Assembly: GCA_043822685.1 (NCBI GenBank)
Contig: JBDRBL010000003.1
Span: 4,659 to 68,658, forward strand
Reading direction: 5' to 3'
Source of the DNA: Candidatus Shapirobacteria bacterium
Lineage (GTDB): Bacteria > Patescibacteriota > Microgenomatia > PFEM01 > JBDRBL01
DNA length: 64,000 bases
Shown here in pieces: positions 14,370-58,276 of this stretch (the first letter of the stretch is position 1; each line of letters opens with the position of its first letter). A model generated the notes under the pieces. It had not been told where the DNA came from and ran no database searches. It saw nothing but the letters and a program-made list of their open reading frames with translations. The translations under genes were made by a program, and so were the position numbers.

Positions 14370-16478
14370 TTAGAGCGATTGTGTCGGGGAGGGAGCAGGA
14401 GAGGGACAGTGATACTTTGGGGCGGTACCGGCCAAAAAGAGTTCTTTCTTCCTCGTGGGTGAACAAATCTCTGTTTCCTCCATCCCTTCCGGTCTTGGCC
14501 AGCCCCGGTTTTCTTTTAAAATCAGATTCATAATTTTGTTCCAAATCGGTGAAGCACCGGTAATTCCCGATGCCACATAGCTCATCGGCGAATTGTCATT
14601 ATTGCCTACCCATACCGCGGTCAAAAAGTCCGGCGTGTAGCCAATCGTCCAGTTGTCCCGGCGGTTTTGAGTTGTGCCGGTTTTAACGGCGACGTTAGGA
14701 AAGTCTTTGATGTTCAGCCACGAATGTATCCCAAACGCCGGTGACCGCGCTTCTGGATCAGCCAAAATATCGGTTAAAAGATAAGCAATTCGTTCGTCCA
14801 TCACCTTTTCTTTTTTAACGGTCATTTTTTCTAAACTCTGTCCACGCGCGTTTTTCACTTCCAAAATCGGGTTTAGTTCTACTTTTTGTCCCAGATTAGC
14901 TAAAGCGCCGTAAACTACGGCCATATCCGTCATTTTTACTTCGCCCCCGCCCAAAGTTAAGGATAAACCAAAACGTGATCGCTCTTTCCAAGTTGTAATT
15001 CCCATTTTTTCTCCCTGATCAATCATTCTGTTGACTCCCAGCGCGGCCAGCACTTTAACTGCCGGTACGTTATAGGATGAAGCTAGCGCTACCCGTAGCA
15101 CTACCTCGCCGTGAAACCGGTCGTCATAGTTGTTGGGTGAATACGGCGGCTGGCCGGCGACCTCGTAAGTGATGGGTGTGTCCGACAATAAGGTTGCGGC
15201 GGTAAAGCCATTGGCCAAAGCTACAGCGTAATTAATCGGTTTAATTGCCGAGCCTGGTTGGCGGGAGCGGGTTGTTACATTGACATTGCCGTCATTTTCC
15301 AAATCGAAATAGTCTTTTGATCCGACCATGGCCAGTATCTCTCCCGTTTCTGGCCTAGTTACCAAAGCCGCCCCGTTGCTGATTTTTAACGGTTCGATCT
15401 TGCCGATTTCCTCGCTGACAATTTTTTGTACTTTTTTTTGTAACTCCAGATCCAGCGAGGTGTAAACTTCCAGTCCGCCGCTTTCCACCATCGGCTGGCC
15501 ATATTTTTGCTCCAACAGCTCTCTAATGTACATCACGTAATGCGGCGCCTGAATTTCATTTCGCTGTGGCGCGAAATGCACCTCCTCCTTTTTGGTTGCT
15601 TCTTCCGCTTCCTTAGTAATAAACTTTTCTTCTCTCATTCGGCGAAGGACTTCTTCCTGCCTCTGTTTTGCCAATTCCGGGTTAGCGCCAAATGGTGAAT
15701 AAGTCGTTGGTGAAGCCGGTAATCCGGCCAGCAGTGCCGCTTCAGCCAAGTTTAGTTTCGCGGCTGGTTTATCAAAATAACTCCAGCTGGCCTCCTCAAT
15801 TCCGTAAGCCGTTCCGCCAAAGCCTACCTCGTTTAAATACATCTGCATAATTTCGTCCTTGGAAAATTGCCACTCTACCCTCAAGGCCAGTAAGATTTCC
15901 CTGATCTTGCGTGACCAGGTTTTTTCCGGAGTCAAGAGCGCATTTTTGACCAATTGTTGAGTAATCGTTGACCCGCCAACCAACTTTTGTTCCCGAATAT
16001 TTTTCCAAGCGGCTCGAAAAATTCCCTTTAAGGACAAGCCGCGGTGTCGATAAAACTCGGCATCTTCAATGGCGACCACTGCCTGCACTAGGTGAATCGG
16101 CAACTCGTTTATTTTGATCAGTGTTCGGCTTTGGCTGCGGTAAATTTTGTAGAGCAATTGACCGTTGCGATCATAAATTTTGGTTGTCAATAAAGGCTGT
16201 CGGTTTATCAATTGATTTGGATCCGGTAAATCCCTCAAAATTAAAAAATAAAAGTTAAAAAATAAAAACAAAAATCCAACTAAAAAAGCGGGGACTAAAA
16301 TCTTTTTAAAATTAAATTTAAGTTTAGCTGGAGGAAAAACGATAACAGTTTTTTTACGAAGATAGCGAGGTTTTTTTTGACTGGCTTTTTCCAGCAGCCA
16401 AACAAGAAGCCTAAAAAAGGGCTGGCCTATTTTTTGCAAAAACAAAGCTATCGGTGAGCCTGTCCTTCGCCGCTTCAT
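14370..16478 (-). CDS. class A penicillin-binding protein (transglycosylase + transpeptidase)
   Basis: GT51 motifs EDAEFYRHRG, GGSTITQQLVKN; transpeptidase SxxK/KTG regions; N-terminal TM. Confidence 0.85.
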   Translation of the reverse strand: MKRRRTGSPIALFLQKIGQPFFRLLVWLLEKASQKKPRYLRKKTVIVFPPAKLKFNFKKILVPAFLVGFLFLFFNFYFLILRDLPDPNQLINRQPLLTTKIYDRNGQLLYKIYRSQSRTLIKINELPIHLVQAVVAIEDAEFYRHRGLSLKGIFRAAWKNIREQKLVGGSTITQQLVKNALLTPEKTWSRKIREILLALRVEWQFSKDEIMQMYLNEVGFGGTAYGIEEASWSYFDKPAAKLNLAEAALLAGLPASPTTYSPFGANPELAKQRQEEVLRRMREEKFITKEAEEATKKEEVHFAPQRNEIQAPHYVMYIRELLEQKYGQPMVESGGLEVYTSLDLELQKKVQKIVSEEIGKIEPLKISNGAALVTRPETGEILAMVGSKDYFDLENDGNVNVTTRSRQPGSAIKPINYAVALANGFTAATLLSDTPITYEVAGQPPYSPNNYDDRFHGEVVLRVALASSYNVPAVKVLAALGVNRMIDQGEKMGITTWKERSRFGLSLTLGGGEVKMTDMAVVYGALANLGQKVELNPILEVKNARGQSLEKMTVKKEKVMDERIAYLLTDILADPEARSPAFGIHSWLNIKDFPNVAVKTGTTQNRRDNWTIGYTPDFLTAVWVGNNDNSPMSYVASGITGASPIWNKIMNLILKENRGWPRPEGMEETEICSPTRKKELFLAGTAPKYHCPSPAPSPTQSL

Positions 16479-16537
16479 AGCCGTATTTTAACAGAGAATT
16501 ATTTTCTGGCAACAAGAAGAGATGGCAGATGAACGAA

Positions 16538-18721
16538 TTATAATACTGGGGCGGGATGGATGATATTTTCGATTTTAATAATTTCGGCTTGAGCGGGGAA
16601 GGGGCAATCAAGACAAAATTTAGTACTCAATGGATCGGTAATGATATTTTTTTCTTGAATTTCTTTATTTTCCGGTAAAGTCTGTTCGTTGGCTAAAGCA
16701 CCGGTTGTTTTATCAATTTCCACGCCTTGTTTTAAGTTTTCCATTGGAGGGAGAGTGTCAGTCAAAAAATACTCAAATCGCGTTTGACAAGGTGCTGCCG
16801 GATTGGGAGAAAAACCCGAAGTGGCGCAAATTTCTGCTCCCACCAGGCCCTCCGGCAGGGAGGGCCACTGCTCTTTTTTGTCCTTTAGGGCGTAACTGAT
16901 AATCTTGTTCCAAATTGGTGAGGCCCCGGTAACTCCCGAAGCCACATAGCTCATGGGCGAATTGTCATTGTTGCCCACCCAAGCAACTACCAGAGTGCTT
17001 GGCGTCCAGCCAATTGTCCAATTATCCCGCAAATCGTTTGTTGTGCCTGTTTTGACCGATACTTCCGGATGGTTTTTAACTGCCAGCCATGAACTGGTTC
17101 CGAAAGCGGCCGACCTGGCGCCATTATCCAGCAAGATGTGATTGATTAAATAAGCCACTTCCATTGGCAGGGCCCGTTTGCCTTCTTGGTCCGGCTGGTC
17201 AAAAATCACTTTTCCGCTAATATCCTCTACTTTTTTGATTGCCCACAAATCTTGACGAATTCCTAAGTTGGCGAAGGTTGAATAGGCGGTTGCCAAATCA
17301 TACATGGTCACTTCGCCCCCGCCCAAAGTTAAGGATAAGCCGTAATTTACCGGCTCTTTCCAGGTCGTTAACCCCATCTCTTTACCTTTAGCCACCACTT
17401 CTTCCAGCGTATTTAAAGCGAGCACTTTTACCGCGGGGATGTTATAAGAATTTGCTAAGGCAAATCGCACGGTCACTGGTCCGTGAAATTGGCCATCGTA
17501 ATTCACTGGACAATAATTCTTTTGACCAGCGACTTGAAAGCAGGTCGCGACATCATTCAAAACTGTTGCCGGGGTAATTAATTTTTTTTCCAAGGCGGCA
17601 GCGTAATTAACAGGCTTAATTGCCGAGCCTGGCTGTCTGGGTCGAGTAACAACGTTAACGTTGCCGTCGATTTCTTGATTAAAGTAATCTCTTGATCCGA
17701 TCATGGCCAAGATTTCTCCCGTTTCCGGCTTGGTCACTAGAACCGCCCCGTTGCTGATTTTTTGCTTAACCAGTTTAGCGGTTTCGCTAGCCACGGTGGT
17801 TTGTGCCCAATCTTGCAAATCCAGATCTAGTGTTGTCGTGACGGTTAAGCCTCCTTGGGCGACCATCTTTTCGCCATATTTTTCTACCAGCAAATCTTTG
17901 ACGTACAAAACAAAATGCGGCGCTTTCATCCGATTGTCCGGTTCGGCATAAACAAGATCTTCTTTTAGAATTTTTTCCTTCTCTTCCGGTTTTAATTTGC
18001 CCATTTCTATCATTTGCTGTAACACCAGCGCCTGCCTCTGTTTAGCCAATTCCGGGTGTGCCCCAAAAGGGGAAAAACGTGTCGGCGATACCGGCAAGCC
18101 AGCTAATAAAGCCGCCTCCGCTAGGCTCAATTCCCGGGCATGCTTGCCAAAATACATCTCGGCGGCGGTCTCAATTCCCCAAGCTGTCCCCCCATAAGGC
18201 GCCTGATTTAAATACATCTCTAAGATTTGATCCTTGGAATAACTTATCTCGGTTGCCGCGGTTAAAAAGGCCTCTCTGATCTTTCGTTTAATTGTTCTTT
18301 CCGGGGTTAGCAGTGAGTTTTTTACCAGTTGTTGGGTCAAGGTTGATCCGCCCTGCAATGATTTTTTGAAAATGGTGTTGTAAGCTGCTCGAGTGATTCC
18401 TTTTAAATCGAAGCCGTGGTGCTGGTAAAAATTTTTATCTTCGGCGGCCAGTGTTGCCCAAGGGATGTATTCCGGCAATTCGCTTAACTTGACCGGCGTT
18501 CGGTTTTTCTCCGCATAGATCTCATAAAGTACTTCCCCGTTTCGATCTAAAATCCGGCTCGATGCCGGCATGTTATTGTCTGTTAGGCGAGCAGGGGAGG
18601 GGAGATCAATGAAAACATAAACCAAACCGCCGGCCGCGGCCAGCGCCAGAATTGCCAATCTCCTTTTGAACCTCACGTTGAATATTATAGCATTCTGGTT
18701 TATCATTGCTTCAGTGACCAA
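16538..18721 (-). CDS. class A penicillin-binding protein, paralog of the adjacent PBP
   Basis: EDKNFYQHHG, GGSTLTQQLVKN; tandem with 14370-16478; start may instead be the MINQ Met at 18706. Confidence 0.85.
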   Translation of the reverse strand: MVTEAMINQNAIIFNVRFKRRLAILALAAAGGLVYVFIDLPSPARLTDNNMPASSRILDRNGEVLYEIYAEKNRTPVKLSELPEYIPWATLAAEDKNFYQHHGFDLKGITRAAYNTIFKKSLQGGSTLTQQLVKNSLLTPERTIKRKIREAFLTAATEISYSKDQILEMYLNQAPYGGTAWGIETAAEMYFGKHARELSLAEAALLAGLPVSPTRFSPFGAHPELAKQRQALVLQQMIEMGKLKPEEKEKILKEDLVYAEPDNRMKAPHFVLYVKDLLVEKYGEKMVAQGGLTVTTTLDLDLQDWAQTTVASETAKLVKQKISNGAVLVTKPETGEILAMIGSRDYFNQEIDGNVNVVTRPRQPGSAIKPVNYAAALEKKLITPATVLNDVATCFQVAGQKNYCPVNYDGQFHGPVTVRFALANSYNIPAVKVLALNTLEEVVAKGKEMGLTTWKEPVNYGLSLTLGGGEVTMYDLATAYSTFANLGIRQDLWAIKKVEDISGKVIFDQPDQEGKRALPMEVAYLINHILLDNGARSAAFGTSSWLAVKNHPEVSVKTGTTNDLRDNWTIGWTPSTLVVAWVGNNDNSPMSYVASGVTGASPIWNKIISYALKDKKEQWPSLPEGLVGAEICATSGFSPNPAAPCQTRFEYFLTDTLPPMENLKQGVEIDKTTGALANEQTLPENKEIQEKNIITDPLSTKFCLDCPFPAQAEIIKIENIIHPAPVL

Positions 18722-20250: not shown

Positions 20251-22155
20251 ATGAAAAAAAATAAGACGGATGCGACCGATTTTGCTTTGGCGATAAATCA
20301 TAAGCCCGTAAATGGCAACGGTTTTGCTTTTAAGTATGCCGGTAAACGGGGCAATATCGAGATTGATGAAGACGAAGTTGATACCATTGTTGTTGGGGAA
20401 GGAAGCAAGGACGACGCTAATAAAATTAATTCACCCGAGGCGACTAGTTTCACTCTGGCCGAGTACGTCAAAAAAGAATACGCTCTTAAACGTGTTTTTT
20501 CTCCAGATGTTGCGGAGGCTCATAAAAATGGCGATATCCATTTACAAAAATTAGGTTTTATTGATCGACCGTATTGTTCTGGTCAATCAGTGGAGTATGT
20601 TAAAAAATTTGGTTTGGAACGGCACTCGTCTTTTGCGGCGGTCAAACCAGCTGCGCACGCCGACGCTTTAATTGATCATTTACATCGTATGACCATGGCT
20701 TTGCGGGCGCAATTTGGTGGGGCCATTGGTTGGGATGCCGTCAATATGTATGTGGCCCCGTATTTGGTCGGCATGTCAGACGGAGAGATTTACCAAGTTG
20801 CTCAAAAACTGATCTACAGTTTTAATGAAACGACTGGTCCGCATGGGGCACAACCGGTTTTTTCGGATATCAATTTGTATTGGGAAATTCCTGCTCACTT
20901 TGCTGCTGTACCTGCCATTGGTCCGCGCGGCGAATTTACCGGGAAAGTTTATCAGGATTACGAAAAAGAAGCCCAAGCTCTAGTCTGGCAAATCTTTAAT
21001 GTTTATCATCACGGTGACGCTAATGGCGCGCCTTTTTTCTGGCCCAAACCCAACTTACATATTACTAAAAAATTTTGGCAAACACCGCAGCACGAGGCCT
21101 TTCTCGAACATGTTTGTAATGTAGCTGCAACCATGGGTAATCCCTATTTTATTATCGATCGCTCCGATGTGGCCAAAATTTCCGAGTGTTGTCGGATTTC
21201 TTTTGAACTTTCACCGGAAGATTTACAAGATGCTCTAAAACCATGGAAGATGCGCTATGCCGCTTGTCCGTATCTTTCGCCTAATTTACCGCGGTTGGCT
21301 TATCGAGCTAAGCACGATGATCAGAAATTTTTTCGCTATTTAGACGCAACTCTGGCCTTGCTTTTTAAAGCTCATTTGCAAAAACGAAGTTTTTTGAAAC
21401 GTATTTTTGATTTGGGAGAATTGGGCCCCTTATCGATGTTAGCTTATCGGGCGCCCGGCGATGACGAACCCTATTTGCGTTTTGATAAGATGGCCTATTT
21501 GATTGCCTTGGTGGGAGTTGATGACGCGGTGCGTTTTCATTTGGGCAAGGCGATTAACGAATCGGCTGAGGCGTTAAAATTAGCGCTCAAAATTGTCGCT
21601 CATATTCGGTTGCGGTGCCATGAATTTGGTCAAAAACATCATTTAAAAATGGTGGCTGACCAGGCACCATCAGAGTCAACGTGTTATCGTTTGGCTCGTT
21701 TAGATTTAGAATACTATCCAGATCAGGCAAAAAAGATTGTTCATGGCAATTTCAAGACGGGTGAAGTTTACTACACTAACTCTACTCAAGTGGCGGTTGA
21801 TGTGCCGATGGATCCTCTGGAAAGAATTGAATTGGAAGGTCGTTTCCACCCTCTGATGGAAGGGGGTTGCATGACGCATATTTGGATTGGCGAAAAAATG
21901 CCCTCGCCCGCTTCATTGGCTAATGTAGTGAAAAAAACTTTTTACGAAACGCAAAATGTTCAGATTGCTTTCTCGCCCGAGTTTACCGTGTGTTTTAATT
22001 GTGGCCAGACCTCGCGCGGTTTGCATAAGATGTGTTCTTATTGTCATAGTCGACGGGTAGACGGGATTACGCGCATTACTGGTTATTACTCTTTTATTAG
22101 TGCGTGGAATAAAGGCAAAAAGGGTGAATTGAGAGATCGTTATAAAGTCTTTTGA
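20251..22155 (+). CDS. nrdD: anaerobic ribonucleoside-triphosphate reductase (class III RNR) catalytic subunit
   Basis: AHKNGDIHLQKL motif; C-terminal CxxC...CxxC zinc ribbon (CFNCGQ...CSYCHS) and glycyl-radical RITGYYS. Confidence 0.8.
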   Translation: MKKNKTDATDFALAINHKPVNGNGFAFKYAGKRGNIEIDEDEVDTIVVGEGSKDDANKINSPEATSFTLAEYVKKEYALKRVFSPDVAEAHKNGDIHLQKLGFIDRPYCSGQSVEYVKKFGLERHSSFAAVKPAAHADALIDHLHRMTMALRAQFGGAIGWDAVNMYVAPYLVGMSDGEIYQVAQKLIYSFNETTGPHGAQPVFSDINLYWEIPAHFAAVPAIGPRGEFTGKVYQDYEKEAQALVWQIFNVYHHGDANGAPFFWPKPNLHITKKFWQTPQHEAFLEHVCNVAATMGNPYFIIDRSDVAKISECCRISFELSPEDLQDALKPWKMRYAACPYLSPNLPRLAYRAKHDDQKFFRYLDATLALLFKAHLQKRSFLKRIFDLGELGPLSMLAYRAPGDDEPYLRFDKMAYLIALVGVDDAVRFHLGKAINESAEALKLALKIVAHIRLRCHEFGQKHHLKMVADQAPSESTCYRLARLDLEYYPDQAKKIVHGNFKTGEVYYTNSTQVAVDVPMDPLERIELEGRFHPLMEGGCMTHIWIGEKMPSPASLANVVKKTFYETQNVQIAFSPEFTVCFNCGQTSRGLHKMCSYCHSRRVDGITRITGYYSFISAWNKGKKGELRDRYKVF

Positions 22156-22159
22156 AAAT

Positions 22160-24256
22160 ATGACCATTGACGAAGTTAGAAAAAGACGAGATGAGGTTTT
22201 TGAGCGGGCGTATAATGTCCGCCGGTCGGATGAAATCATAAAAAATTGGGACCGGCAGGCGATCATTAAGTCACTGAAGAAAGAATTGGGCGATAAAGAC
22301 GGCTTAACGGAAGAAATTGCCGAAGCGGTTGAGAAAAAGATCTTTAAGATGGATTTGTCGGTGATTACCGGACCATTAGTTCGCGAGACGGTCTGTATTG
22401 AATTATTGTTGCGGGGAATGGAGGAAGAGTATCGGAGATATCAGCGATTAGGGTTACCGATTTATGATGTCCGCAATATTATGATGACGCACAACGAGGC
22501 GGTTTCTTCTAATAATCCTCACACTCCGGAGACAACTAATATGACGATTGCCGGGTCGATCAAAAAAGATTACGCCATGGCGGAAATCTTTTCGCGTGAA
22601 GTCACCGAAGCTCATCTGAAAGGGGATCTTCATCTACACAAGTTGGATTTTCCTGACCGGCCATATTGTTGCGGCAATAGCTTGGAGTACGTTAAAAAAT
22701 ACGGCCTTAATTTGAGCTCGTCTTTGGCGATTGCTCGCCCAGCCAAACACGCCGGTGTTTTGATTTTGCATATGATTAAGTTTTCCTGTATGCTGCAAAT
22801 TCATTTTTCCGGAGCAATTGGCTGGGAAGCGGTTAATATTTTTTTGGCACCGTATTTAGTCGGTTTATCAGAAAAAGAGATTTATGATTTGGCGCAGTTG
22901 TTAGTCTATGAATTTAATACTCAAAACGTGGCCAAGGGCGGGCAGGCGGTTTTTTCCGATATTAATCTCTACTGGGAAGTGCCGGAACACTATCGCCAAA
23001 CGCCGGCGATTGGTCCTGGCGGCAAATATACCGGCAAGACTTATGCTGACTACGAAAAAGAAGCGCAGTTGTTTTTAACCCAATTAATGCAGGTTTATCT
23101 CAAAGGCGATGGCTCCGGCCGGCCTTTTTTTTGGCCTAAGCCCGATTTTCATATGACCGAGCGTTTTTGGCAAACACCGGGGCATAAAGAATTTTTAAAT
23201 TTGGCTTGTCAAGTGGCGAGTAAAATGGGCAATACCGAGTTTTTCTTTGACCGGGGCCAAGCCTCGCGGATTTCCCAATGCTGTCGCTTGTCGTTTAAAC
23301 TCGACAAAAAAGACTTGGAAGAAACCAAAAAACCAGAATTAATGCGCCATTCGGCTACCTCTTGGGTGACGCTTAATCTACCGCGAATCGCTTATGAAGC
23401 TAATCACAATGATGACAAATTATTTTTGTTGTTGAAAAAACGGATGAATTTGGCGGCCAAGGCTCATGTCCAAAAACGACGTTTTATACAAAAAATCCTG
23501 AACTTGAGGACTAATGGTCCCTTATCAGCGTTGTGTACCCGCCAAGTTGATGATCCCTATCCTTTTTACCGTTTTGACCGATCGGTCGAGTTGACCACGA
23601 TTTACGGCGTTAATGAGATGGTTCAATATCATTTGGGTCAACAATTGCATGAATCAGACGACGCGTTAAAGCTAGGGCTTAAAATTGTTTCGATGATGAA
23701 TTTGTACACCAAAGAGCAAAGCCAAAAGTTAAAGTTGCGAATTTGTACCGAGCAAACCCCGGCTGAAGGCACTTCATATCGCCTGGCGCGTTTGGATTTG
23801 CAATGGTTTTCGGACGAAGCAAAACAAGTGGTTAAGGGCAATCAAAAGACCGAAGCGGTTTACTATACCAATTCTTCGCAGTTAAATAATTCGGCGGCAG
23901 TTGATCCGATTGAAAGAATCAAAAAAGAGGGCTTGTTTCACCCTTTAATCGATGCCGGCGCGATGACTCACCTTTGGCTGGGAGAGCAGGAGCCACCGGC
24001 GAACTCTTTAGCTAATTTTATCAAAAAAATTTTTCAGGAAACCAAGTGTGAGTTGGTCGCTTTTTCACCGGAGTTTACTTTATGTTCTGATTGCCGCCAG
24101 ACTACCCGGGGATTAAAAGATGTTTGTTCTTATTGTAATTCAAGAAATATTGACCATATGACCCGTGTTTCCGGTTTCTACTCGCTTACCAGCCGGTGGA
24201 ATAAGGGCAAGATGCAAGAGTTAAAAGACAGATACCGGAACGATAATAAATTTTAA
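22160..24256 (+). CDS. nrdD: class III RNR catalytic subunit, second paralog, with an N-terminal ATP-cone-like extension
   Basis: about 55% identity to the upstream paralog over the core; CSDCRQ...CSYCNS and RVSGFYS; N-terminal roughly 100 aa resembles an ATP-cone. Confidence 0.8.
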   Translation: MTIDEVRKRRDEVFERAYNVRRSDEIIKNWDRQAIIKSLKKELGDKDGLTEEIAEAVEKKIFKMDLSVITGPLVRETVCIELLLRGMEEEYRRYQRLGLPIYDVRNIMMTHNEAVSSNNPHTPETTNMTIAGSIKKDYAMAEIFSREVTEAHLKGDLHLHKLDFPDRPYCCGNSLEYVKKYGLNLSSSLAIARPAKHAGVLILHMIKFSCMLQIHFSGAIGWEAVNIFLAPYLVGLSEKEIYDLAQLLVYEFNTQNVAKGGQAVFSDINLYWEVPEHYRQTPAIGPGGKYTGKTYADYEKEAQLFLTQLMQVYLKGDGSGRPFFWPKPDFHMTERFWQTPGHKEFLNLACQVASKMGNTEFFFDRGQASRISQCCRLSFKLDKKDLEETKKPELMRHSATSWVTLNLPRIAYEANHNDDKLFLLLKKRMNLAAKAHVQKRRFIQKILNLRTNGPLSALCTRQVDDPYPFYRFDRSVELTTIYGVNEMVQYHLGQQLHESDDALKLGLKIVSMMNLYTKEQSQKLKLRICTEQTPAEGTSYRLARLDLQWFSDEAKQVVKGNQKTEAVYYTNSSQLNNSAAVDPIERIKKEGLFHPLIDAGAMTHLWLGEQEPPANSLANFIKKIFQETKCELVAFSPEFTLCSDCRQTTRGLKDVCSYCNSRNIDHMTRVSGFYSLTSRWNKGKMQELKDRYRNDNKF

Positions 24257-25257: not shown

Positions 25258-25605
25258 ATGGTGAGTGATGAGCGCAAGGATATTCCCAGTGTTGAACCAG
25301 AAACAGTTAAATATACCGAAGTTGAGACGACTCCGGAAATTGGTCCGGAGGTTAAGGATTGGTTGACCCAGCTGGAGCAAGGCGAGGAAATTAAACTGCC
25401 CCAGCCGGTGACCGATGATCAAGGTCAGATTTTGGTGAGCAATGTGGCTCCACAGCAAGTAACGATCACTTTACCTTTAACCGAAGCGGAGATGAGGCGC
25501 GCTCTGCATTTAAAACTAGTTTATGCCGCTCGTTGGTTGGGGGAGCAGATGAACCGGCTGTCGCAAATTATGGGAGGAAGGCTTGTTTATAAATTCAAAA
25601 GTTGA
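25258..25605 (+). CDS. hypothetical protein, acidic
   Basis: ORF track; stop/start overlap with the downstream ATPase gene. Confidence 0.35.
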   Translation: MVSDERKDIPSVEPETVKYTEVETTPEIGPEVKDWLTQLEQGEEIKLPQPVTDDQGQILVSNVAPQQVTITLPLTEAEMRRALHLKLVYAARWLGEQMNRLSQIMGGRLVYKFKS

Positions 25606-27944
25606 ATATGGAATTGATTGACAATTTTCTTAATCGTTTGCTTTCTTGGCTGGTGATTTTAGCGACGGTGGCGCTGGTTGCCGGGGCGTTGGCCTTGGTT
25701 TTTTACGCTTTTTTTGTCTGGTGGAAATATCGTCGTCGCGAAAAACAATCCCTAGAATATTTGATACTTCAAATTGCCGTACCTCATGATAATGAGATTA
25801 AAATTGATGCCGCCGAGCAGATGTTTGCTTCCCTGGCTTCCATAAAAAAAGGTGGCTGGTTTTCTTTTTTACGCCCCCAGCCGCACCTTGCTTTTGAAAT
25901 TTTGGCTAAACACGAGGATATTTGTTTTTATCTTTCGGTTCATCGCAAGATGCGCGATTTGGTGGAAAAACAAATTTATGGTGCCTATCCCGATGCCAAA
26001 TTGCTCGAAGTTGAGGAGCCCACGATTTTTACTCAAAACGGCAAAGTTGCTTTTGCCGAGATGCAGTTTCGCTCGAGTGCCTACCTTCCCCTCAAGGTTT
26101 ACAAAGATCTTCCTACTGACCCTCTTTCGGCGATTACCGCGGTGATGGCCAAGATGGGTGAGGAGGAGGGGGCGGTGATTCAAATTTTAATCTCTCCCGC
26201 CGACGGTAAGTGGAGAAACAAGGGCCATGCTTATGTTTCTCGTATCAAGAAGAACGAAAGTAATCCGGAGAAGGCTAAATTTGCTGTTGACCCCAAGGAT
26301 TTGGAGGCGATTGAGAATAAGTGTTCCAAGCCCGGTTTCAAAACTTACCTGCGTTTTGTTGTCTGCGCCCCCGATTTAGAGCAGGCTAATGCTCATTTAG
26401 GCAATCTTAAAAGCGCCTTTTCTCAATTTGATTCTCATCTTAACAGCTTCAAAAGCAAAAAAACATGGCTTAAGAAATCCTTTATGCTCGACTTTATTTA
26501 TCGCTATCAGCCGCGCTGGACATGGCGTACCAATAGCGCTATTTTAAATTCAGAGGAGTTGGCCACGGTTTTTCACTTGCCTAACAAACAAGTGGAAACG
26601 CCCCACCTGCGCTGGGTTTATTCCAAACGTTCCCCGGCACCGATTAATATTCCCACCGGCGGTTTATTGCTGGGTCGTAATGTTTTTCGCGGGGTTACCC
26701 GGCCGGTCTATCTCACCGACTCCGATCGCCGCCGGCACATCTATATTATTGGCCGTACCGGCGTCGGCAAAACAGAACTAATGCGCGATCTGATTTTGCA
26801 GGATATTCGTTCGGGTAAGGGAGTTTGCCTGATTGATCCTCATGATATTGCCGAGGATATTCTTAATTTTATCCCGCCGGAGAGAGCCGAAGACGTGATT
26901 TATTTTGATCCTTCCGACGAAGAGCGGCCGCTAGGTTTAAATTTACTCGAAGCGCACACTGAACAACAAAAGCACTTTGTGACCACCGGTATTATTAATT
27001 TAATGTATAAGCTTTTTGATCCTTATAAAACAGGAATTGTCGGGCCGCGCTTTGAACACGGAGTGAGAAACGCAATGTTGACGGTCATGTCCGAGCCGGG
27101 GGCTACTTTTATCGAGGTCGTTCGGATTATGACCGATTCCCGTCTGGTCCAGGAATACCTGCCTAAAGTTACCGACGCTATGGTGCGCCGCTATTGGACT
27201 GATCAAATTGCCCAAACCTCTGATTTTCACAAGTCCGAGGTTTTGGACTACACCGTTTCCAAGTTCGGTCGTTTCGTTACCAATAAAATGATGCGGAATA
27301 TCATTGGTCAATCAGAGTCTTCTTTTGATTTCCGCAAAGTTACGGATGAGGGAAAAATCTTGATTATTAATTTGGCTAAAGGTAAATTGGGGGAGGAAAA
27401 TTCTAATTTTTTGGGCCCGATTTTGGTGCCGAAGATTCTTATGGCGGCGATGTCGCGCCAAGACACTCCCGAGGAACAGCGGAAAGACTTTTATTTATAT
27501 GTGGATGAGTTTCAAAACTTTGCCACGCCTGATTTTGCCCAAATTTTGTCCGAGGCGCGCAAGTATCGGCTTAATTTGTGCGTTGCCAACCAATTTATTG
27601 GTCAAATGGAGGAGGAAGTTAAAAACGCGGTTTTTGGCAACGTTGGAACATTGATTTCTTTTAATATTGGGGTCACGGATGCCAACTTTTTGCAGCATTG
27701 GTTTGCACCTACCTTCGGGGAGGATGACCTGATTAACATCGAAAAATATAACGCCTATATCAAAACAATCGTTAAGAGCGAGCCTCAACCGCCTTTCTCG
27801 ATGGATTTATCTAAAGATATGGCGGAACTTAATCGCCAGCGCAATCCACGCGTTTCGGAGATGATCAAACAGCTTTCCCGGCTCAAGTATGGCCGCGCCA
27901 GAGAGGTTGTTGAGGCGCAAATTACCCAGCGGGCAAGATTATAG
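25602..27944 (+). CDS. membrane-anchored P-loop ATPase of the type IV secretion type (VirD4/TraD coupling-protein or VirB4-like; FtsK/HerA superfamily)
   Basis: N-terminal TM; Walker A IGRTGVGKT; Walker B-like YLYVDEFQNF; 780 aa. Confidence 0.5.
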   Translation: MNMELIDNFLNRLLSWLVILATVALVAGALALVFYAFFVWWKYRRREKQSLEYLILQIAVPHDNEIKIDAAEQMFASLASIKKGGWFSFLRPQPHLAFEILAKHEDICFYLSVHRKMRDLVEKQIYGAYPDAKLLEVEEPTIFTQNGKVAFAEMQFRSSAYLPLKVYKDLPTDPLSAITAVMAKMGEEEGAVIQILISPADGKWRNKGHAYVSRIKKNESNPEKAKFAVDPKDLEAIENKCSKPGFKTYLRFVVCAPDLEQANAHLGNLKSAFSQFDSHLNSFKSKKTWLKKSFMLDFIYRYQPRWTWRTNSAILNSEELATVFHLPNKQVETPHLRWVYSKRSPAPINIPTGGLLLGRNVFRGVTRPVYLTDSDRRRHIYIIGRTGVGKTELMRDLILQDIRSGKGVCLIDPHDIAEDILNFIPPERAEDVIYFDPSDEERPLGLNLLEAHTEQQKHFVTTGIINLMYKLFDPYKTGIVGPRFEHGVRNAMLTVMSEPGATFIEVVRIMTDSRLVQEYLPKVTDAMVRRYWTDQIAQTSDFHKSEVLDYTVSKFGRFVTNKMMRNIIGQSESSFDFRKVTDEGKILIINLAKGKLGEENSNFLGPILVPKILMAAMSRQDTPEEQRKDFYLYVDEFQNFATPDFAQILSEARKYRLNLCVANQFIGQMEEEVKNAVFGNVGTLISFNIGVTDANFLQHWFAPTFGEDDLINIEKYNAYIKTIVKSEPQPPFSMDLSKDMAELNRQRNPRVSEMIKQLSRLKYGRAREVVEAQITQRARL

Positions 27945-27962
27945 AACAATTTTTAATCAATT

Positions 27963-27979
27963 CCTGCCTTGCTGGCAGG
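27963..27979 (+). terminator. hairpin CCTGCC-ttgct-GGCAGG after the ATPase gene; possible terminator (U-tract displaced)
   Basis: inverted repeat read from the sequence, followed by an AT-rich region. Confidence 0.3.
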
Positions 27980-28275
27980 CAGGTTAAATATCAAATTTTT
28001 AAACTGTCCGAATAATTTTTAATTCTTTCATAATTTGGTTTGTCATTGTAAAAAACTCATTTTTGGAGAGCAAAGATTTGGATTTTTCGTCTAATTTTTT
28101 CTCAAAATTTTCTCCGATTTTATCAAGATCATGTTTGGTGATGATCATGATTTAATTGAAAGATAATCTCTGGGAGAAGTCAAGATAATTTGTTGCCACT
28201 TTGACAAAGTAGTCATTAGTTGATAAACTGAACAGTAGTAGATAGTTTTTATGGGTTTAGTTTTATTGTTCGATA

Positions 28276-28956
28276 ATGACTCGAGTAATTGATCGGCGTA
28301 AAGCCATCTATTTTCGTCAGCAGGGTAAGACTTACAGTGAAATTAAAAAAGAATTAAATCTTTCCAAAAGCACTCTTTCTGGTTGGTTAAGTAAATATCC
28401 ACTCACTCGAGAACAACTTGAGAAGGTAAAATCTAGAATTAATTTTAAAAAGAATTTGGCTGTTGAAAAATGTCGTCTTACTAAACTAAACAAATGGAAA
28501 AATCGACTTAAACAAACTTATGAAAACGAAAAAAATAGGTTGTTGAATCTGACGGAAAAAGAGTTATATATTGCTGGTTTGTTCTTATATTGGGGAGAAG
28601 GATCAAAAGCAATAAAAAATGCTATTTCTCTTAATAACACTGATCCCAAAGTGGTTAAATTTTATTTATTTTGGCTGACCAAAATTCTCCACTTTGATAG
28701 AAACAAAATTAGAGTTCAAGTTCATCTCTACGATGATATGAATATCAAGCGTTCTTTAGATTACTGGAGCAGGGAATTGAGGATGCCTATGAACCAATTT
28801 GCTAGACCATATATAAAAAAGAGCAAAAGAATTGAGGTTGACCAAAAGGGTTTTGGGCACGGCACTTGTACCTTAAGAATAGGCAACGTTCTTCTTAAGG
28901 AGAAGATTCTTATGGGGATAGAAGCGATTGCTGATCATTATAACCAAAAAATTTGA
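28276..28956 (+). CDS. HTH-domain protein with a C-terminal region weakly resembling a LAGLIDADG endonuclease fold; hypothetical, low GC
   Basis: N-terminal GKTYSEIKKELNLSKSTLSGWL HTH; YIAGLFLYWGEGSK resembles a LAGLIDADG motif with an insertion; AT-rich codon usage. Confidence 0.35.
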   Translation: MTRVIDRRKAIYFRQQGKTYSEIKKELNLSKSTLSGWLSKYPLTREQLEKVKSRINFKKNLAVEKCRLTKLNKWKNRLKQTYENEKNRLLNLTEKELYIAGLFLYWGEGSKAIKNAISLNNTDPKVVKFYLFWLTKILHFDRNKIRVQVHLYDDMNIKRSLDYWSRELRMPMNQFARPYIKKSKRIEVDQKGFGHGTCTLRIGNVLLKEKILMGIEAIADHYNQKI

Positions 28957-28971
28957 TAAAATACGCTTTAG

Positions 28972-29044
28972 GGGGCGGTAGCTCAATGGTGGAGCGGCAT
29001 CCTTATAAGATGAAGGCTTGATGGTTCGAATCCATCCCGCCCCA
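28972..29044 (+). tRNA. tRNA with UAU anticodon (reads AUA; Ile)
   Basis: manual cloverleaf fold: 7-bp acceptor GGGGCGG/CCGCCCC, D-stem GCTC/GAGC, anticodon loop CUUAUAA, T-arm GATGG-TTCGAAT-CCATC, discriminator A; a G27-A43 mismatch and a 6-nt variable loop make the fold imperfect. Confidence 0.65.
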
Positions 29045-29056
29045 CAGAAATGGATT

Positions 29057-29135
29057 TTTCGGCGAGTCAGAGATGGCGCTCGCCGCGCCCGCTCCCGCCC
29101 CCCCCCACACGCAGCGCTACCTTCACGCTCGGCCT
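29057..29135. repeat. GC-rich element A with an internal hairpin; imperfect direct repeat of element B at 30075-30125
   Basis: shares GGCGAG-N4-5-AGATGGCGC, TCGCCGCGC and GCGCTACCTT blocks with element B; GC-rich in an otherwise AT-rich stretch. Confidence 0.4.
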
Positions 29136-29404
29136 TCAGTCTCGTAAAAAGTCGGCTCGGTCAGTCCTTTCTTAAAAAGAAATGATCTCAAAGAAAAACG
29201 CAAAAATTTTAAAGAACTAAATCGATAAACTTTAAAGGCGCAACCGGTGGAACCAACTAAGAATCGCTTCTTGTTGTCCGATTGCGCCATTGAAAAAGCG
29301 ATTCCCTAAAAGTTGGTTCCAAATATCAATATACCAAATTCCTAAGGATTTTGGTATACTCATTTCAATATAAGTACAAGTTTAGAAAGAGAGGAGGTGA
29401 AAAT

Positions 29405-29986
29405 ATGCAAGAAGCTAGCAATAAAGAGCCTGTCAACAGTAATTTAGGCGATATTTTACAAAGGTCGCGTGGCGAGACCGATGCTGCTTTGAATGCAAAG
29501 GAGGTAGCAGAACAAGCTGAGCGAGATAGACAATCGGCAATTGATCAAGCATTGAGAAATATGGTTAGCAATAAGGACTTATTAAAATTTCTCAAGGCAA
29601 GAGATAAAGCGGTTACCTTGGTAGAGGGTAAACAGAAAACAGTTAATGCAGGAAAACCACTTGTAGAAATTACTGGTAATGGAAGAATAATAATTTCCCA
29701 CAGGAATTGGAAGGACGGAAGTGTCAGGGCAACTGATAGTTATGGGCTTGTCGATGTCAACGACCCAAATAGTAGAGTAAACTCTGACCAAATGGAGTAT
29801 CTTAATAGATTTGTTGTGGATGGAAAAGCGTTTATATTAAAATCTACAAGCAGTGCAATTAGTCCTAAAGTAGGTGATTTCCTTGCAGCAACCTATTTAG
29901 GTAATGATGTTTTGGGAACAAATATAACTGCAGACCATATAAGCCGATCGCTGACAGCAGGGGTTACAGAGCTCGCTAATAAGTAA
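29405..29986 (+). CDS. hypothetical protein (193 aa), low-GC, apparently strongly expressed orphan
   Basis: start reassigned to the ATG at 29405 preceded by a very strong SD AGAGGAGGTGA and a TG-extended -10 TGGTATACT; no signal peptide; flanked by elements A and B. Confidence 0.5.
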   Translation: MQEASNKEPVNSNLGDILQRSRGETDAALNAKEVAEQAERDRQSAIDQALRNMVSNKDLLKFLKARDKAVTLVEGKQKTVNAGKPLVEITGNGRIIISHRNWKDGSVRATDSYGLVDVNDPNSRVNSDQMEYLNRFVVDGKAFILKSTSSAISPKVGDFLAATYLGNDVLGTNITADHISRSLTAGVTELANK

Positions 29987-30074
29987 GTGAAATTATTAAA
30001 ACTCGGCGGAGCCGAGCAAAAATCGCGCGCGAAACATAAGCGAGGCCGAAGGCCCCTCCAGAGGCGGGCAGGCG

Positions 30075-30125
30075 AGCGTGAAGATGGCGCGGCGAGTGGG
30101 CGGCGGCACTCGCCGCGCTACCTTT
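30075..30125. repeat. GC-rich element B with a perfect 10-bp hairpin (GCGCGGCGAG...CTCGCCGCGC); partner of element A
   Basis: direct sequence comparison with 29057-29135. Confidence 0.4.
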
Positions 30126-30166
30126 GAAACTCAGTTCGAATTTTTTCGTAAAGAGTCCACTCCGTT

Positions 30167-31036
30167 TTACAACTCTTCCAATTTGACGTTTTCTTTGACC
30201 TTGTTCTCCACCAGTTTTAAGTATTTTTCGGTGGTGGAAAGCCTTTTGTGGCCAACCAGTTGCTGCAAAGTTACCACTGGGGCTCCGGCCGCCAACTGGT
30301 GAGCAATAAAAGTGTGCCGCAAGTCATTAACCGTGGCATTTTTGACTTCTGCGATTCGGAAGTAGCGATCAATGGCGGCTCTGATATTGCGCACCAGCAA
30401 TTGTTTGCCGGTTTTGGTTACAAAGATACTCTGACACTTTGCCATCGACCGATGGTTTAAGTATTTTTCCAGCGCTTTTTTGACTGAATCGTTTAATGGG
30501 ACGAGCCTTTCTTGGTGTCCTTCAAACGGCCGAACTCTCAAGCGATTTTCTTGCACATCAGCCAATTCCAGCCTCGCCAGCTCACTGATTCGTAAACCTG
30601 TTTGCAGTAAAATTTCAATTACGGCGGCTATTCGGACATCTCCTCGTGCCGCATCTCGTAAGGCTCGATATTCCATTTTGGATAACACTCTGGGTGCTTT
30701 TGATTCATAGCGCGGATAGGCCACCGTCTGGGTTGGATTTTCGCGAATTACTCCTTGTTGGGTTAAAAATCGAAAAAAAGTTTTGATTGAATTTAACTTT
30801 CGAGAAATTGATTTGGCAATGTATTTCTTTTGCGTGAGATCTTTTTTAAACTCTTCGATTGTTGCCGCGGTTACCTGGTCGACCTTGTCGATTTCTTTAG
30901 CCGCCAGAAATTTATTCAACTGCTCAACATCTTTTCCGTATGCTAAAATAGTTGCTGAAGCGCGGCCCTGTTTTTTTAGTTCGCTAACAAAGTTATTTTG
31001 GGCAACTATTAATAATACTTTCTCGTTTTCGTTCAT
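30167..31036 (-). CDS. tyrosine site-specific recombinase (XerC/XerD / phage-integrase family)
   Basis: C-terminal catalytic LRHTFIAHQL...GHKRLSTTEKY (R..HxxR..Y) and an N-terminal SAM-like domain. Confidence 0.8.
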   Translation of the reverse strand: MNENEKVLLIVAQNNFVSELKKQGRASATILAYGKDVEQLNKFLAAKEIDKVDQVTAATIEEFKKDLTQKKYIAKSISRKLNSIKTFFRFLTQQGVIRENPTQTVAYPRYESKAPRVLSKMEYRALRDAARGDVRIAAVIEILLQTGLRISELARLELADVQENRLRVRPFEGHQERLVPLNDSVKKALEKYLNHRSMAKCQSIFVTKTGKQLLVRNIRAAIDRYFRIAEVKNATVNDLRHTFIAHQLAAGAPVVTLQQLVGHKRLSTTEKYLKLVENKVKENVKLEEL

Positions 31037-31910: not shown

Positions 31911-31984
31911 GGGGGTGTGGTTAAGTGGTATAACACGGGTCTCCAAAACCTGTATCGGGAGTTCGATTCTCTCCACCCCCGCCA
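31911..31984 (+). tRNA. tRNA-Trp (CCA anticodon) with encoded 3-prime CCA
   Basis: manual cloverleaf: acceptor GGGGGTG/CACCCCC, anticodon loop CUCCAAA, T-loop TTCGATT, discriminator G then CCA. Confidence 0.85.
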
Positions 31985-31997
31985 AGAAAGGAAAAAA

Positions 31998-32999
31998 ATG
32001 ATTAAAATTAAAAAACGGATTCTTACCGGCGATACGCCGACGGGGAAATTGCATCTTGGTCATTATGTGGGCACGTTGGAAAATCGGGTTAAATTGCAAC
32101 ACGAGTACGAAACCTATATTTTATTGGCCAATGTTCACGCTTTTGACAATTTTTATAACGATCCTGAGCGGATCAATCGGGATGTTTATAATGTTTTTTT
32201 AGACAATTTGGCCGTGGGTATTGATCCCAATATTGCTACGATTTATTTGGAATCAGGGATCCCGGAAACCTACGAACTTTACAGTTTGTTTTTGGCCATG
32301 GTCAAGCATTCTGTAGTAATTCGCAACCCCTCGGTTAAGGACGAAATTAAATATAAAAAACTCGATCCCTCCATTGGTTTTGTCGTGTATCCCGTTTTAC
32401 AAGCGGCCGATATTTTGGGTTTTAATGCCGATCTAGTGCCGGTTGGGGAGGATCAGTTGCCCATTATTGAGCAAACTCGCGAAATTGCTCGCGCTTTTAA
32501 TCGGACTTTTGGGGAAACTTTTGTAGTGCCTCAAGCCAAGGTTGGTCGGGTAGCTCGACTGGTTGGCACTGACGGTCAAACCAAGATGAGCAAGGGTGGC
32601 GGCAACGCGATTCTTTTATCTGATGATGAAAAGACTTTAAAGCAGAAGATTATGGCCTGTTATACCGATCCCAACAGAATTCATGCTTCTGATCTGGGAA
32701 AAGTGGAAGGTAACCCTATTTTTGTTTATCATCAAGCCTTTAATCCCAATAAAGATGAAGTAGCCGATTTGGAGGCACGATATCGAACTGGCAAGGTTGG
32801 CGATGTTGAGGTCAAAGAAAAATTGTTTACTGCTCTAAATAATTTTCTCATGCCGATCAGAGAAAAAAGAAAATATTACGAAGACAGACCTCGCTTGGCC
32901 AAAGAAATTTTGGTTGAAGGAACCAAGCGCGCTCGGAAAGTTGTCCAAGCGACTTTGGAACGAGTCAGAGAGAAGACTCAAATAAACAAGCTTATTTAG
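31998..32999 (+). CDS. trpS: tryptophanyl-tRNA synthetase
   Basis: class I HIGH-type motif TGKLHLGHY, KMSKGG (KMSKS); start moved to the ATG at 31998, because the track ORF starts inside the tRNA-Trp gene. Confidence 0.85.
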   Translation: MIKIKKRILTGDTPTGKLHLGHYVGTLENRVKLQHEYETYILLANVHAFDNFYNDPERINRDVYNVFLDNLAVGIDPNIATIYLESGIPETYELYSLFLAMVKHSVVIRNPSVKDEIKYKKLDPSIGFVVYPVLQAADILGFNADLVPVGEDQLPIIEQTREIARAFNRTFGETFVVPQAKVGRVARLVGTDGQTKMSKGGGNAILLSDDEKTLKQKIMACYTDPNRIHASDLGKVEGNPIFVYHQAFNPNKDEVADLEARYRTGKVGDVEVKEKLFTALNNFLMPIREKRKYYEDRPRLAKEILVEGTKRARKVVQATLERVREKTQINKLI

Positions 33000-33039: not shown

Positions 33040-34926
33040 ATGGCCAGGAAAAATCACCCTAAAATTAAGCCTAAAGTTCTCAAGAAGTTTGAATTTCGCC
33101 TGCGTTTTAATCTTAAAAACTTATTAACTTGGGGTTTGGTGGCTTTTTTAGTGCTTTCCTTTTTGGCCTCGGCTTCGAGCATGCCCTCGGCGCCAAAAAT
33201 TCCTCTGTCGCAGGCCCTGCAGGATATTAAGGATCAGAAGATCGAAAAGATTGAAGTCGAAGATGGCAGATTGAACCTAACTTATAAGGATGGTCAAACC
33301 TTGGTGGCCCAGAAGGAAACCGGCGTGGCTTTTACTGAAGTTCTTAAATCAGTGGAGATCTCGCCGGAGACGGTTAATTTTACGATTAAAGACATTGGCC
33401 TTTCTAAACTTTGGCTGGATTTGATCTCCAATGTTTTACCGATTATCTTGATGGTGCTATTTTTCTTTTTTATTTATCGTCAGGCACGGGGAGCGCAAGA
33501 TTCAATCTTTTCTTTTGGCCGCTCGCCGGCGCGGATGTTTATCCGCAACGGGAAACAACCCAAAATTACCTTTAAAGATGTCGCCGGAGTGGATGAGGCG
33601 AAAAAGGAGTTAACCGAAGTAGTCGATTTTTTGAAGAATACGGAGAAATACAAGAAGCTGGGCGCGCGCACTCCCAAAGGGGTTTTGTTGGTAGGTCCGT
33701 CGGGAACAGGTAAAACTTTGCTGGCCAAAGCGGTAGCGGGTGAGGCGAATGTACCCTTTTTTAGCATGGCCGGCTCGGAATTTATGGAGATGTTGGTGGG
33801 GGTTGGCGCCAGCAGGGTGCGCGATCTGTTTAATACCGCCAAAAAAGCCGCCCCTTCAATTATTTTTATTGATGAGATCGATGCGATTGGCCGTCAGCGG
33901 GCGACCGGTGTTTTTTCCGGTGGTCATGATGAGCGAGAGCAGACTCTTAACCAAATTTTGGTGTAGATGGATGGTTTTACCACTCAAGATAATGTCATGG
34001 TAGTGGCGGCTACCAATCGCGGCGATCTTTTGGATTCGGCTCTTTTGCGTCCCGGCCGCTTTGACCGACGGGTGGTTTTGGATTTGCCGGATGTTGAAGG
34101 CAGGCAGGCGATTTTGAAAATTCATGGTCAAGGGAAGGTTTTTGCTCAAGACATTAATTGGGGTTCAATCGCTAAACAAACAGTGGGTTTTTCCGGGGCG
34201 GATTTGGAAAACATGCTTAATGAGGCGGCTATTTTTGCGGCGGGGGCCAATAAAACGGCCATCGAGGAAAAAGATATTCGCGAGGCTTCGGTTAAGGTTA
34301 AACTGGGACCGGAACGCAAACGCCTGCAATCGGTTGATGATCGAAAAATGACGGCTTACCACGAGGCCGGTCATGCTCTAGTGAGTTTTTGTTCGCCGCA
34401 GACTGACCCGGTGCGCCGGGTTTCCATTGTGGCGCGGGGTATGAGTTTGGGGCACACCATGATGTCCCCAATCAAAGATCGGACCCATGAGACCAAGACT
34501 CGATTGGAAGAGCAGATTAGCGTGATGATGGGTGGCCGGGCTGCCGAGCAATTAATTTTCAAAGAGATGACTACCGGAGCGGCTAATGATATTGCGAGCG
34601 CAACGAAGTTGGCGCGGGCGATGGTGGTTAATTTTGGCATGAGTCATTTGGGACCGGTTTATTTGGGGTCACAGAGTGAAGAAGGGGAGATGGGCCGGAT
34701 GTTGTGGTATGAGCCGGCCAATCTTTCCCCACAAATGCAGGCTAAGATTGATGCAGAGATTAAAAAAATTACCGATACCGCTTATCGGCGCGCCGTGACG
34801 ATTTTAAAATCGCATCGAATACAAATGGATACTCTGGCCAAAGCCTTGTTGGAAAAAGAAACGCTGGAAGAAGAAGAGTTTGAGAAAATAATGAAAGTCG
34901 AGAATGAAGCGCTTGGTTCTCATTGA
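33040..34926 (+). pseudogene. ftsH: ATP-dependent zinc metalloprotease FtsH interrupted by an in-frame TAG at the conserved Glu of LLVEMDGF (two ORFs, 33040-33966 and 33967-34926)
   Basis: both ORFs are in the same frame; ...[25 protein letters not shown]...; Walker [19 protein letters not shown] zinc motif. Confidence 0.6.
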
Positions 34927-39250: not shown

Positions 39251-39691
39251 ATGACACAGATTTCTAAGCGTCCATTAGATAAGAAAATTGAGAGCGAGTT
39301 GTTTCAACTTCTAGTTAAAGCCATTGCCGACTTAAGAAATTCCGAAGAGATCGAAGAATTTTTAGCTGATTTTTTGTCACCGGTGGAAAAAATTATGCTG
39401 GCCAAAAGATTGGGAATTGCCGTCTTGATGGGAAAAAATTATGACTATCGGCAGGTGAAAGAAGTTTTAAAAGTTACTCCGGGAACGATTGCGGCCGTAA
39501 ATTTGAAGTACAAATATGCCAATCGAGGCTATAAAAAAGTGGTCGAGAAGATTCTCAAACAAGAAAAAACAGGGGAGTTGTTCAATAGAATTGGCGATTT
39601 TTTGACCTCGGTTCCTCCCAAAGGTGGCGATTGGTCGGTTTGGCGCCGGCGCAAAGAACAGGCCAAAGTCGCCCGCCAAAAAATACTCTGA
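39251..39691 (+). CDS. TrpR-like YerC/YecD family DNA-binding protein
   Basis: ELFQLLVKAI...EEIEEFLADFLSPVEKIMLAKRLGIAVL...TPGTIAAVNLKYKYANRGY mirrors the YerC/YecD pattern. Confidence 0.6.
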   Translation: MTQISKRPLDKKIESELFQLLVKAIADLRNSEEIEEFLADFLSPVEKIMLAKRLGIAVLMGKNYDYRQVKEVLKVTPGTIAAVNLKYKYANRGYKKVVEKILKQEKTGELFNRIGDFLTSVPPKGGDWSVWRRRKEQAKVARQKIL

Positions 39692-57395: not shown

Positions 57396-57734
57396 ATGAA
57401 ATTGGTGGATGCGGTTTTGAGTCAAAAAGAAATCGTGGAGTTGCACAAACACTATGGCGGTTATGTAAAAATTACGGCAGAAATTGAAAAAGAAGAATTG
57501 ATTGTTGGAACGGAACTCCACGCCGACGGGGAAAAAGTTTTACTGACTCGTGGCGGCCAACAAGACAATATTTGGGGTGGGGGAATTGATTTGGAGGCCA
57601 AGATTGTGGATACTACAGCCGTTTTGAATTTGCGCCCGTGTTTGGGCAATGACAGTTTGGAAATTCTTTTACCGGAAAAAAGAGAAAAATTTATTAAGTT
57701 GGTCAAAAAATATTTTGTCAAGTTATGGTCTTAG
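57396..57734 (+). CDS. uncharacterized 112-aa protein, cassette copy A, gene 1
   Basis: paralog of 59744-60082, sharing H.HYGGY..IT, HADGEK.LL, NIWGGGI.LE, NLR. Confidence 0.5.
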   Translation: MKLVDAVLSQKEIVELHKHYGGYVKITAEIEKEELIVGTELHADGEKVLLTRGGQQDNIWGGGIDLEAKIVDTTAVLNLRPCLGNDSLEILLPEKREKFIKLVKKYFVKLWS

Positions 57735-58242: not shown

Positions 58243-58276
58243 GCTTTTAGTTTACCAAAATGGTATGATTATTTCA

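Follow-up and report, generated by a model that had tools for sequence, protein, structure and literature searches.

The bacterial AAA+ protease FtsH, as represented by the structures from Thermotoga maritima (7tdo) and E. coli (7vhp), is built from a transmembrane (TM) helix, the FtsH_ext domain, a second TM helix, the AAA module, its lid and the M41 protease domain, in this order. Within the AAA module the Thermotoga and E. coli proteins share a near-identical segment, NQLLVEMDGF and NQMLVEMDGF, respectively. We analysed a gene-dense 64-kb stretch of DNA (GC 44%; the whole of this stretch is referred to below as the window) from a Microgenomates bacterium of the Candidate Phyla Radiation (CPR), which codes for an FtsH with the same domain order and all of the catalytic motifs. 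It differs from the above proteins by one codon: a TAG occupies the position of the invariant Glu of NQ(I/L/M)LVEMDGF, and translation by the standard code stops after Val308, so that the product ends at residue 308. The features of the locus are as follows:

33040..33963, plus strand: 5' part of ftsH (308 codons), coding for the N-terminal TM helix, FtsH_ext, another TM helix and the portion of the AAA module that ends with the helix following Walker B
33640..33642, plus strand: ACG codon (Thr201); Pro in 99% of relatives, including the nearest one, which has CCG
33694-33717, plus strand: Walker A motif GPSGTGKT, in the first ORF
33781-33807, plus strand: pore loop, in the first ORF
33859-33882, plus strand: Walker B motif IIFIDEID, in the first ORF
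33964..33966, plus strand: in-frame TAG at residue 309, standing for the invariant Glu codon of NQILVEMDGF
33967..34926, plus strand: 3' part of ftsH, 319 codons and TGA; begins with the conserved Met of EMDGF and encodes sensor-1, the second region of homology (SRH), the AAA lid and the M41 protease
34000-34017, plus strand: sensor-1, in the second ORF
34012-34068, plus strand: SRH with the Arg fingers, in the second ORF
34360-34377, plus strand: HEAGHA, the HEXXH motif of the M41 zinc protease, in the second ORF

The locus thus comprises two ORFs in the same frame on the plus strand (33040-34926), namely ORF1 (33040-33966; 308 aa followed by TAG) and ORF2 (33967-34926; 319 aa followed by TGA), whose sole separator is the TAG at 33964-33966. 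The DNA at the junction reads AAC CAA ATT TTG GTG TAG ATG GAT GGT TTT, i.e. NQILV*MDGF. Pfam profiles detect FtsH_ext (1.6e-08, residues 29-94) and the first part of AAA (4.7e-29, profile positions 1-89 of 131) in ORF1, and the remainder of AAA (profile positions 92-130), AAA_lid_3 (8.3e-12) and Peptidase_M41 (5.2e-64, profile positions 4-191 of 191) in ORF2. As the profile positions continue across the junction, the two ORFs are colinear, with no insertion or loss except one codon, and when read together they yield one complete AAA module with all its motifs in order. The membrane anchor is likewise present, in the form of hydrophobic segments at residues 28-45 and 128-146 around the extracytoplasmic FtsH_ext domain. 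With Glu placed at the TAG, the joined protein of 628 aa aligns end to end with both FtsH structures, the alignment to the full-length 7tdo starting at residue 22. The break itself falls within the α/β core of the AAA module, between Walker B (β3) and sensor-1 (β4), and not at a domain boundary. What the locus does not offer is the single uninterrupted polypeptide typical of the family, as the TAG breaks the frame at a point where 81 of 81 relatives are uninterrupted. Judged by its sequence, the locus is an ftsH gene with a nonsense codon and not an intact member of the family.

To place this codon in context we compared 80 related ftsH loci from distinct genomes together with the nearest relative (81 in all). 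The latter, referred to here as the sister, comes from a JGI metagenome (fragment P0004, contig L001), shows 89% amino acid identity to the window protein and belongs to a different species; identities to the proteins of Shapirobacteria, Woesebacteria and Gottesmanbacteria (Microgenomates, CPR) are about 60-65%. All 81 relatives have a Glu codon at the position of the TAG (GAG in 45, GAA in 36) inside the motif NQ[I/M]LVEMDGF, and the sister reads GTA GAG ATG. Hence, the TAG is unique among 82 sequences in a column that is otherwise 100% Glu. It is one G-to-T transversion away from GAG and lies outside any homopolymer or repeat. The order DivIC-trpS-ftsH-5'-3' exonuclease-glycosyltransferase-Fpg is common to the window and the orthologous loci. 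The initial annotation had proposed a complete FtsH, with its TM, Walker A/B, SRH and HEAGH elements, spread over two same-frame ORFs and interrupted at a universally conserved Glu by a single-base change; the profile matches and the codon comparison bear this out in full. Look-ups of the exact products of both ftsH halves and of the neighbouring exonuclease returned no match in public protein collections, nor did a 53-mer (in genome contigs) and a 38-mer (in metagenome contigs) spanning the junction with N at the variable base. The C-terminal half, used by itself as a protein query, had a best match of 86%, and the public collections searched contained no independent assembly of the same species.

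The comparison also recovered a variant architecture of FtsH. Four proteins of 888-893 aa (P0001, P0002, P0003 and P0005) contain two complete tandem AAA modules before a single M41 protease, and each of these modules has its own Walker A/B, NQ(I/V)L(V/T)EMDGF, SRH and lid. In one contig the gene for such a protein (L085, 5001-7682) is found where ftsH usually lies, upstream of the 5'-3' exonuclease; the double-AAA form therefore looks like the ortholog of that lineage, and its interpretation as a spare paralog was rejected on account of this position. The best HMM matches of the window protein are about 890 aa long, which might be taken to mean that it lacks 260 aa; this idea was likewise rejected, as these matches are the tandem-AAA variants, which score higher for that reason only. 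Our full-text literature search found no description of double-AAA FtsH.

The occurrence, in a CPR bacterium, of a stop codon in frame at a position where a sense codon is conserved recalls known recoding systems, such as code 25 of the Absconditabacteria and Gracilibacteria (UGA=Gly), UAG=Pyl and the UAG-recoded phages. In these terms, full-length FtsH would be produced by programmed recoding of the UAG through a suppressor tRNA, insertion of the pyrrolysine type or a stimulated readthrough signal. Such an explanation is favored only by the position of the stop, in a gene expected to be needed, and by the A that follows it; in E. coli, UAG-A is considered to terminate relatively weakly. Unlike in the recoding systems, however, the window has a single instance of such a codon, TAG is a normal terminator there, no cognate tRNA is encoded within these 64 kb and the Microgenomates relatives use standard Glu codons. 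Among the 61 ORFs of the window with Pfam support or clear gene character, 27 end in TGA, 24 in TAA and 10 in TAG. The genes ended by TAG have complete Pfam domains before the stop, and they include, as had been pointed out previously, trpS directly upstream of ftsH (TAG at 32997-32999). Two pairs of same-frame genes separated by TAG, the PfkB kinase/PHP phosphoesterase and the Mrr nuclease/SDR reductase pairs, consist of complete and independent genes. Apart from ftsH, every pair of long same-frame ORFs split by one stop (at 4747, 13322, 58949, 63451, 8269, 10837 and others) was considered as a further case and rejected, all being separate genes. The short phosphoglycerate kinase (PGK; 308 aa) was also considered as a second broken gene and rejected, as it is colinear from the N- to the C-terminus with solved PGKs and has shortened loops. 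A search for other in-frame TAGs in conserved genes, a check proposed at the outset for the whole genome, found none in the window, and neither in-frame stops of any kind nor frameshifts were found in its other conserved genes (~60).

The window encodes four tRNAs, Ile(UAU), two Met(CAU) and Trp(CCA), with no CUA-anticodon (suppressor) tRNA among them, and an Rfam scan of the window detected only these four and no other element. The RNA past the stop folds no better than shuffled sequence (33955-34075: -33.3 kcal/mol, with shuffles averaging -34.7; z = +0.41), and the sequence 3' of the TAG is the same conserved coding sequence as in relatives with GAG. Reassignment of UAG would be expected to affect many genes, whereas we observe one in-frame TAG in about 61 genes and no depletion of TAG as a terminator. 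According to a large Codetta screen, UGA is the codon concerned in every stop reassignment known from bacteria, and the in-frame stops of pseudogenes are a recognised cause of false genetic-code calls (PMC8629427). A search of the full-text literature on stop-codon readthrough in Patescibacteria found nothing. Taken together, these observations indicate that the TAG is a genuine stop signal and not a recoded codon, and programmed recoding at this site is extremely improbable.

Several other features of the window deserve mention in their own right. The tRNA-Trp(CCA) gene (31911-31984) lies directly upstream of trpS and overlaps the GTG-started ORF at 31917-32999; trpS itself probably begins at the ATG near 31998. 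A gene for a TrpR-like repressor is present at 39251-39691. The region 25602-31036 includes a low-GC stretch (0.37 at 28-30 kb) and contains, besides an unannotated ORF, the following genes:

25602-27944: TraG/VirD4-like coupling ATPase
28276-28956: HTH protein
28972-29045: tRNA-Ile with the unusual UAU anticodon
30167-31036, minus strand: tyrosine recombinase

This region may be an integrated mobile element; against this reading, a recombinase next to DivIC is also found in one of the relatives (L083). The PGK gene mentioned above belongs to a glycolytic operon (7166-9198), in which the TIM-like ORF is just 175 aa long and matches only positions 150-237 of the 245-position TIM profile, and a SLOG/LOG-like gene lies between it and the compact PGK (308 aa). 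Tandem paralogs occur at 14370-18721 (minus strand; two class-A PBPs of 702 and 727 aa) and at 20251-24256 (plus strand; two anaerobic ribonucleotide reductases NrdD of 634 and 698 aa, followed by the NrdG activase), and both pairs represent an unexpected redundancy for a small CPR genome. Two DUF5674 paralogs (57396-57734 and 59744-60082) flank the following pair of genes:

58241-58951: Mrr-like nuclease with an ATP-cone
58967-59725: SDR reductase

Finally, a DsbA-like ORF (62942-63745, plus strand) shows the order TM anchor, C-terminal DsbA segment, N-terminal thioredoxin segment with CPFC, and stop; from this arrangement it looks like a circular permutation or tandem-duplication remnant of the intact paralog at 52485-53282 (plus strand).

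Comparison with the sister reveals no indels, and dN/dS is 0.012 upstream of the stop (171 shared codons) and 0.035 downstream of it (318 codons), values for which dS is saturated. With the 80 other relatives as outgroups, the downstream half shows 10 window-specific and 10 sister-specific changes, and window and sister lie equally far from the outgroups on average (0.380 versus 0.383). Of 195 columns with at least 97% conservation the window departs at three, namely the stop, the conservative K169R and P201T. The two departures other than the stop are typical, in that 38% of the relatives have at least two at columns of at least 97% conservation. Together, the low dN/dS, the lack of indels and the lack of a rate acceleration indicate that the downstream half was translated and under selection for nearly the whole time since the split from the sister. 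P201T (CCG>ACG) is the only other window-specific change at a site with at least 99% conservation; it is a C:G>A:T transversion, the same class of change as that of the TAG, which with two events is only a hint.

These data bear directly on the idea of an established pseudogene, according to which ftsH was lost long ago and its function moved to a second copy elsewhere in the genome. A dN/dS of 0.035 downstream of the stop, together with zero indels and no surplus of lineage-specific changes, is at odds with such a history, as is the retention of the gene in the conserved DivIC-trpS-ftsH-exonuclease-glycosyltransferase-Fpg neighborhood of the orthologous copy. The double-AAA forms of other lineages do not furnish a precedent for a spare copy, given that they occupy the same position and are orthologs rather than spare paralogs, and there is no second M41/FtsH gene within the 64-kb window. 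A long-standing loss of this kind has hardly any probability. As there is no secondary decay, the lesion is either very recent or not real; on the evidence of the sequence comparison an old pseudogene is excluded, and the lesion would have to be extremely recent if it is real at all. In having a single-base premature stop and no recoding signal, the locus resembles both ordinary nonsense alleles or nascent pseudogenes and consensus base errors. It differs from the common run of nonsense alleles and pseudogenes in that the gene affected is a highly conserved housekeeping gene with zero secondary decay, which places it at the youngest end of the spectrum, or else marks it as not real.

Other interrupted ftsH genes in related metagenome-assembled genomes (MAGs) provide a useful comparison. 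The search with the C-terminal half recovered several C-terminal-only FtsH products on long contigs, whose loci have the gene order of the window. In Woesebacteria GW2011_GWB1_38 (L082; GCA_000993085.1, LBVL01000018.1) an out-of-frame deletion of ~62 nt at 3806-3854, either real or a local misassembly, joins KTLLAR to LVGVGASR; the stretch linking Walker A to the pore loop is thereby lost, and the gene is annotated as two proteins. A second locus (L083; ENA ERZ25039477 contig_9861) has one additional T in a homopolymeric T-run, and a third (L084; GCA_001779035.1) is interrupted by a run of N, i.e. a gap. All three resemble the window in their synteny, and in that an ftsH located internally on a long contig is annotated in the form of two ORFs or of a C-terminal fragment. 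They differ in that their lesions lie ~65 codons upstream of the Glu, and all three retain GAG/GAA-ATG at the site of the window's TAG. One 315-aa product from a 55-kb contig (P0145) starts at MDGF and raised the prospect of a recurrent split at this motif; this was rejected, as the DNA reads an intact GTT GAG ATG and the Met start is the annotator's choice downstream of the ~62-nt deletion of L082. A shared break near residue 240 in the three loci was also rejected, since the three lesions described above are unrelated. Hence, at least two of these three interrupted ftsH genes are assembly artefacts, which makes artefacts a common source of split ftsH genes, and where an ftsH is called as interrupted in MAGs of this clade, the cause is usually technical.

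This record lends weight to the view that the TAG is either an error of the sequencing or the consensus or a minority variant picked by the assembler, with the organism itself having GAG and an ordinary, intact ftsH. The gene is otherwise flawless, with intact motifs, no indels, dN/dS of 0.01-0.04 and no rate acceleration, just as it would look if the stop were an error, and the complete lack of secondary decay is no less compatible with an error. None of the 81 relatives deviates from Glu here, and the second C>A change affects a 99%-conserved Pro codon of the same gene. G>T is the class of change that arises from oxidative DNA damage in library preparation. Conversely, errors of the damage type normally remain at a low read fraction and should reach the consensus only at low coverage; the lesion is not in a homopolymer or repeat; and ~60 other genes in the 64 kb have neither frameshift nor premature stop, which speaks for a low consensus error rate. 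On balance, we regard an error at this base as a serious, if tentative, possibility.

Our preferred reading, to which we assign a probability of roughly one half, is that the TAG is a real and very recent nonsense allele carried by the sequenced Microgenomates population. A single very recent G-to-T substitution would have created the stop in an ftsH that had until then been under strong purifying selection. In favor of this, about 55 kb of surrounding coding sequence, comprising ~60 other genes, has no detectable disruptive error; this speaks for a good consensus, in which a random substitution error at 33964 in particular is not especially likely. Against it stands the intact state of FtsH in all 80 related genomes sampled, from which it follows that loss of ftsH should normally be costly. 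That said, the bacteria that can dispense with ftsH include B. subtilis, L. lactis, C. crescentus and S. aureus, and several bacteria without LPS are among them (PMC8112672). A literature search on the essentiality of ftsH in Saccharibacteria found nothing. The description of the gene in the initial annotation as essential and single-copy therefore combined two assumptions, of which the single copy is borne out for the window, and essentiality is weakened by these dispensable cases. As to the four causes offered there, an error and a nonsense variant, the latter of very recent origin and perhaps polymorphic in the population, survive; programmed readthrough does not agree with the use of TAG in 10 of 61 genes and the lack of a suppressor tRNA, Rfam element or structure after the stop in the window, and pseudogenisation, if long-standing, does not agree with dN/dS of 0.01-0.04 on both sides of the stop, the absence of indels and the unaltered rate.

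If the allele is real, the truncated product would remain anchored in the membrane and would retain Walker A, Walker B and the pore loop between them; everything from sensor-1 onwards, including the arginine fingers, lid and protease, would be missing. As the stop abuts a conserved Met codon (TAGATG), re-initiation is conceivable, and ribosomes might in this way produce a C-terminal fragment of 319 aa. Rare near-cognate misreading of the UAG could additionally yield traces of the full-length protein. In that case the cell would be null or hypomorphic for ftsH, a state that some bacteria lacking LPS can tolerate, with an allele too young for secondary decay.

The junction raises the further prospect of a two-piece FtsH, in which the N-terminal and the re-initiated C-terminal fragments assemble non-covalently into an active protease, the split being tolerated or even maintained. 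A stop directly before an ATG is the normal junction of coupled operon genes in the window (e.g. 8269/8272 and 10837/10840), and here too the stop directly precedes an ATG, the conserved Met codon, with both halves still perfectly conserved. Split genes are known in other reduced-genome symbionts, e.g. Nanoarchaeum. Yet this ATG exists only as the Met of the conserved motif, and just a weak GGTG, too close to it, is found upstream; the conservation of both halves is fully explained by the recency of the lesion. Naturally split proteins would be expected to show a conserved split at a domain boundary, whereas the split occurs in 0 of 81 relatives, giving no evidence of maintenance, and the break lies inside the AAA core (β3/β4). 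Complementation of the two fragments is a priori unlikely, and a two-piece FtsH is accordingly an improbable account of the locus. The same low standing applies to the broader scenario in which the T is real and fixed, no other ftsH exists, and FtsH is made as two polypeptides, the C-terminal one by re-initiation, that reassemble across the break in the AAA+ core, or the cell survives on trace near-cognate readthrough, which we consider decidedly unlikely. If true, it would amount to natural fragment complementation or extreme dosage tolerance of a housekeeping AAA+ protease in a reduced-genome CPR bacterium.

In conclusion, the locus presents an ordinary kind of point lesion, a lone nonsense codon in an otherwise intact and strongly constrained ftsH, and is neither a case of recoding nor a conserved split gene nor an old pseudogene. 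For annotation, a single ftsH entry is appropriate rather than two genes, flagged for its internal stop as a possible sequencing error or pseudogene, and the TAG should not be read as a sign that this lineage uses an alternative genetic code. As the comparison further shows, most of the "split ftsH" genes called in related MAGs result from assembly artefacts. In biological terms, the finding represents at most one very young loss-of-function or hypomorphic ftsH allele in an uncultured Microgenomates bacterium; if this allele is real, it would be one more indication that not all bacteria depend on FtsH.
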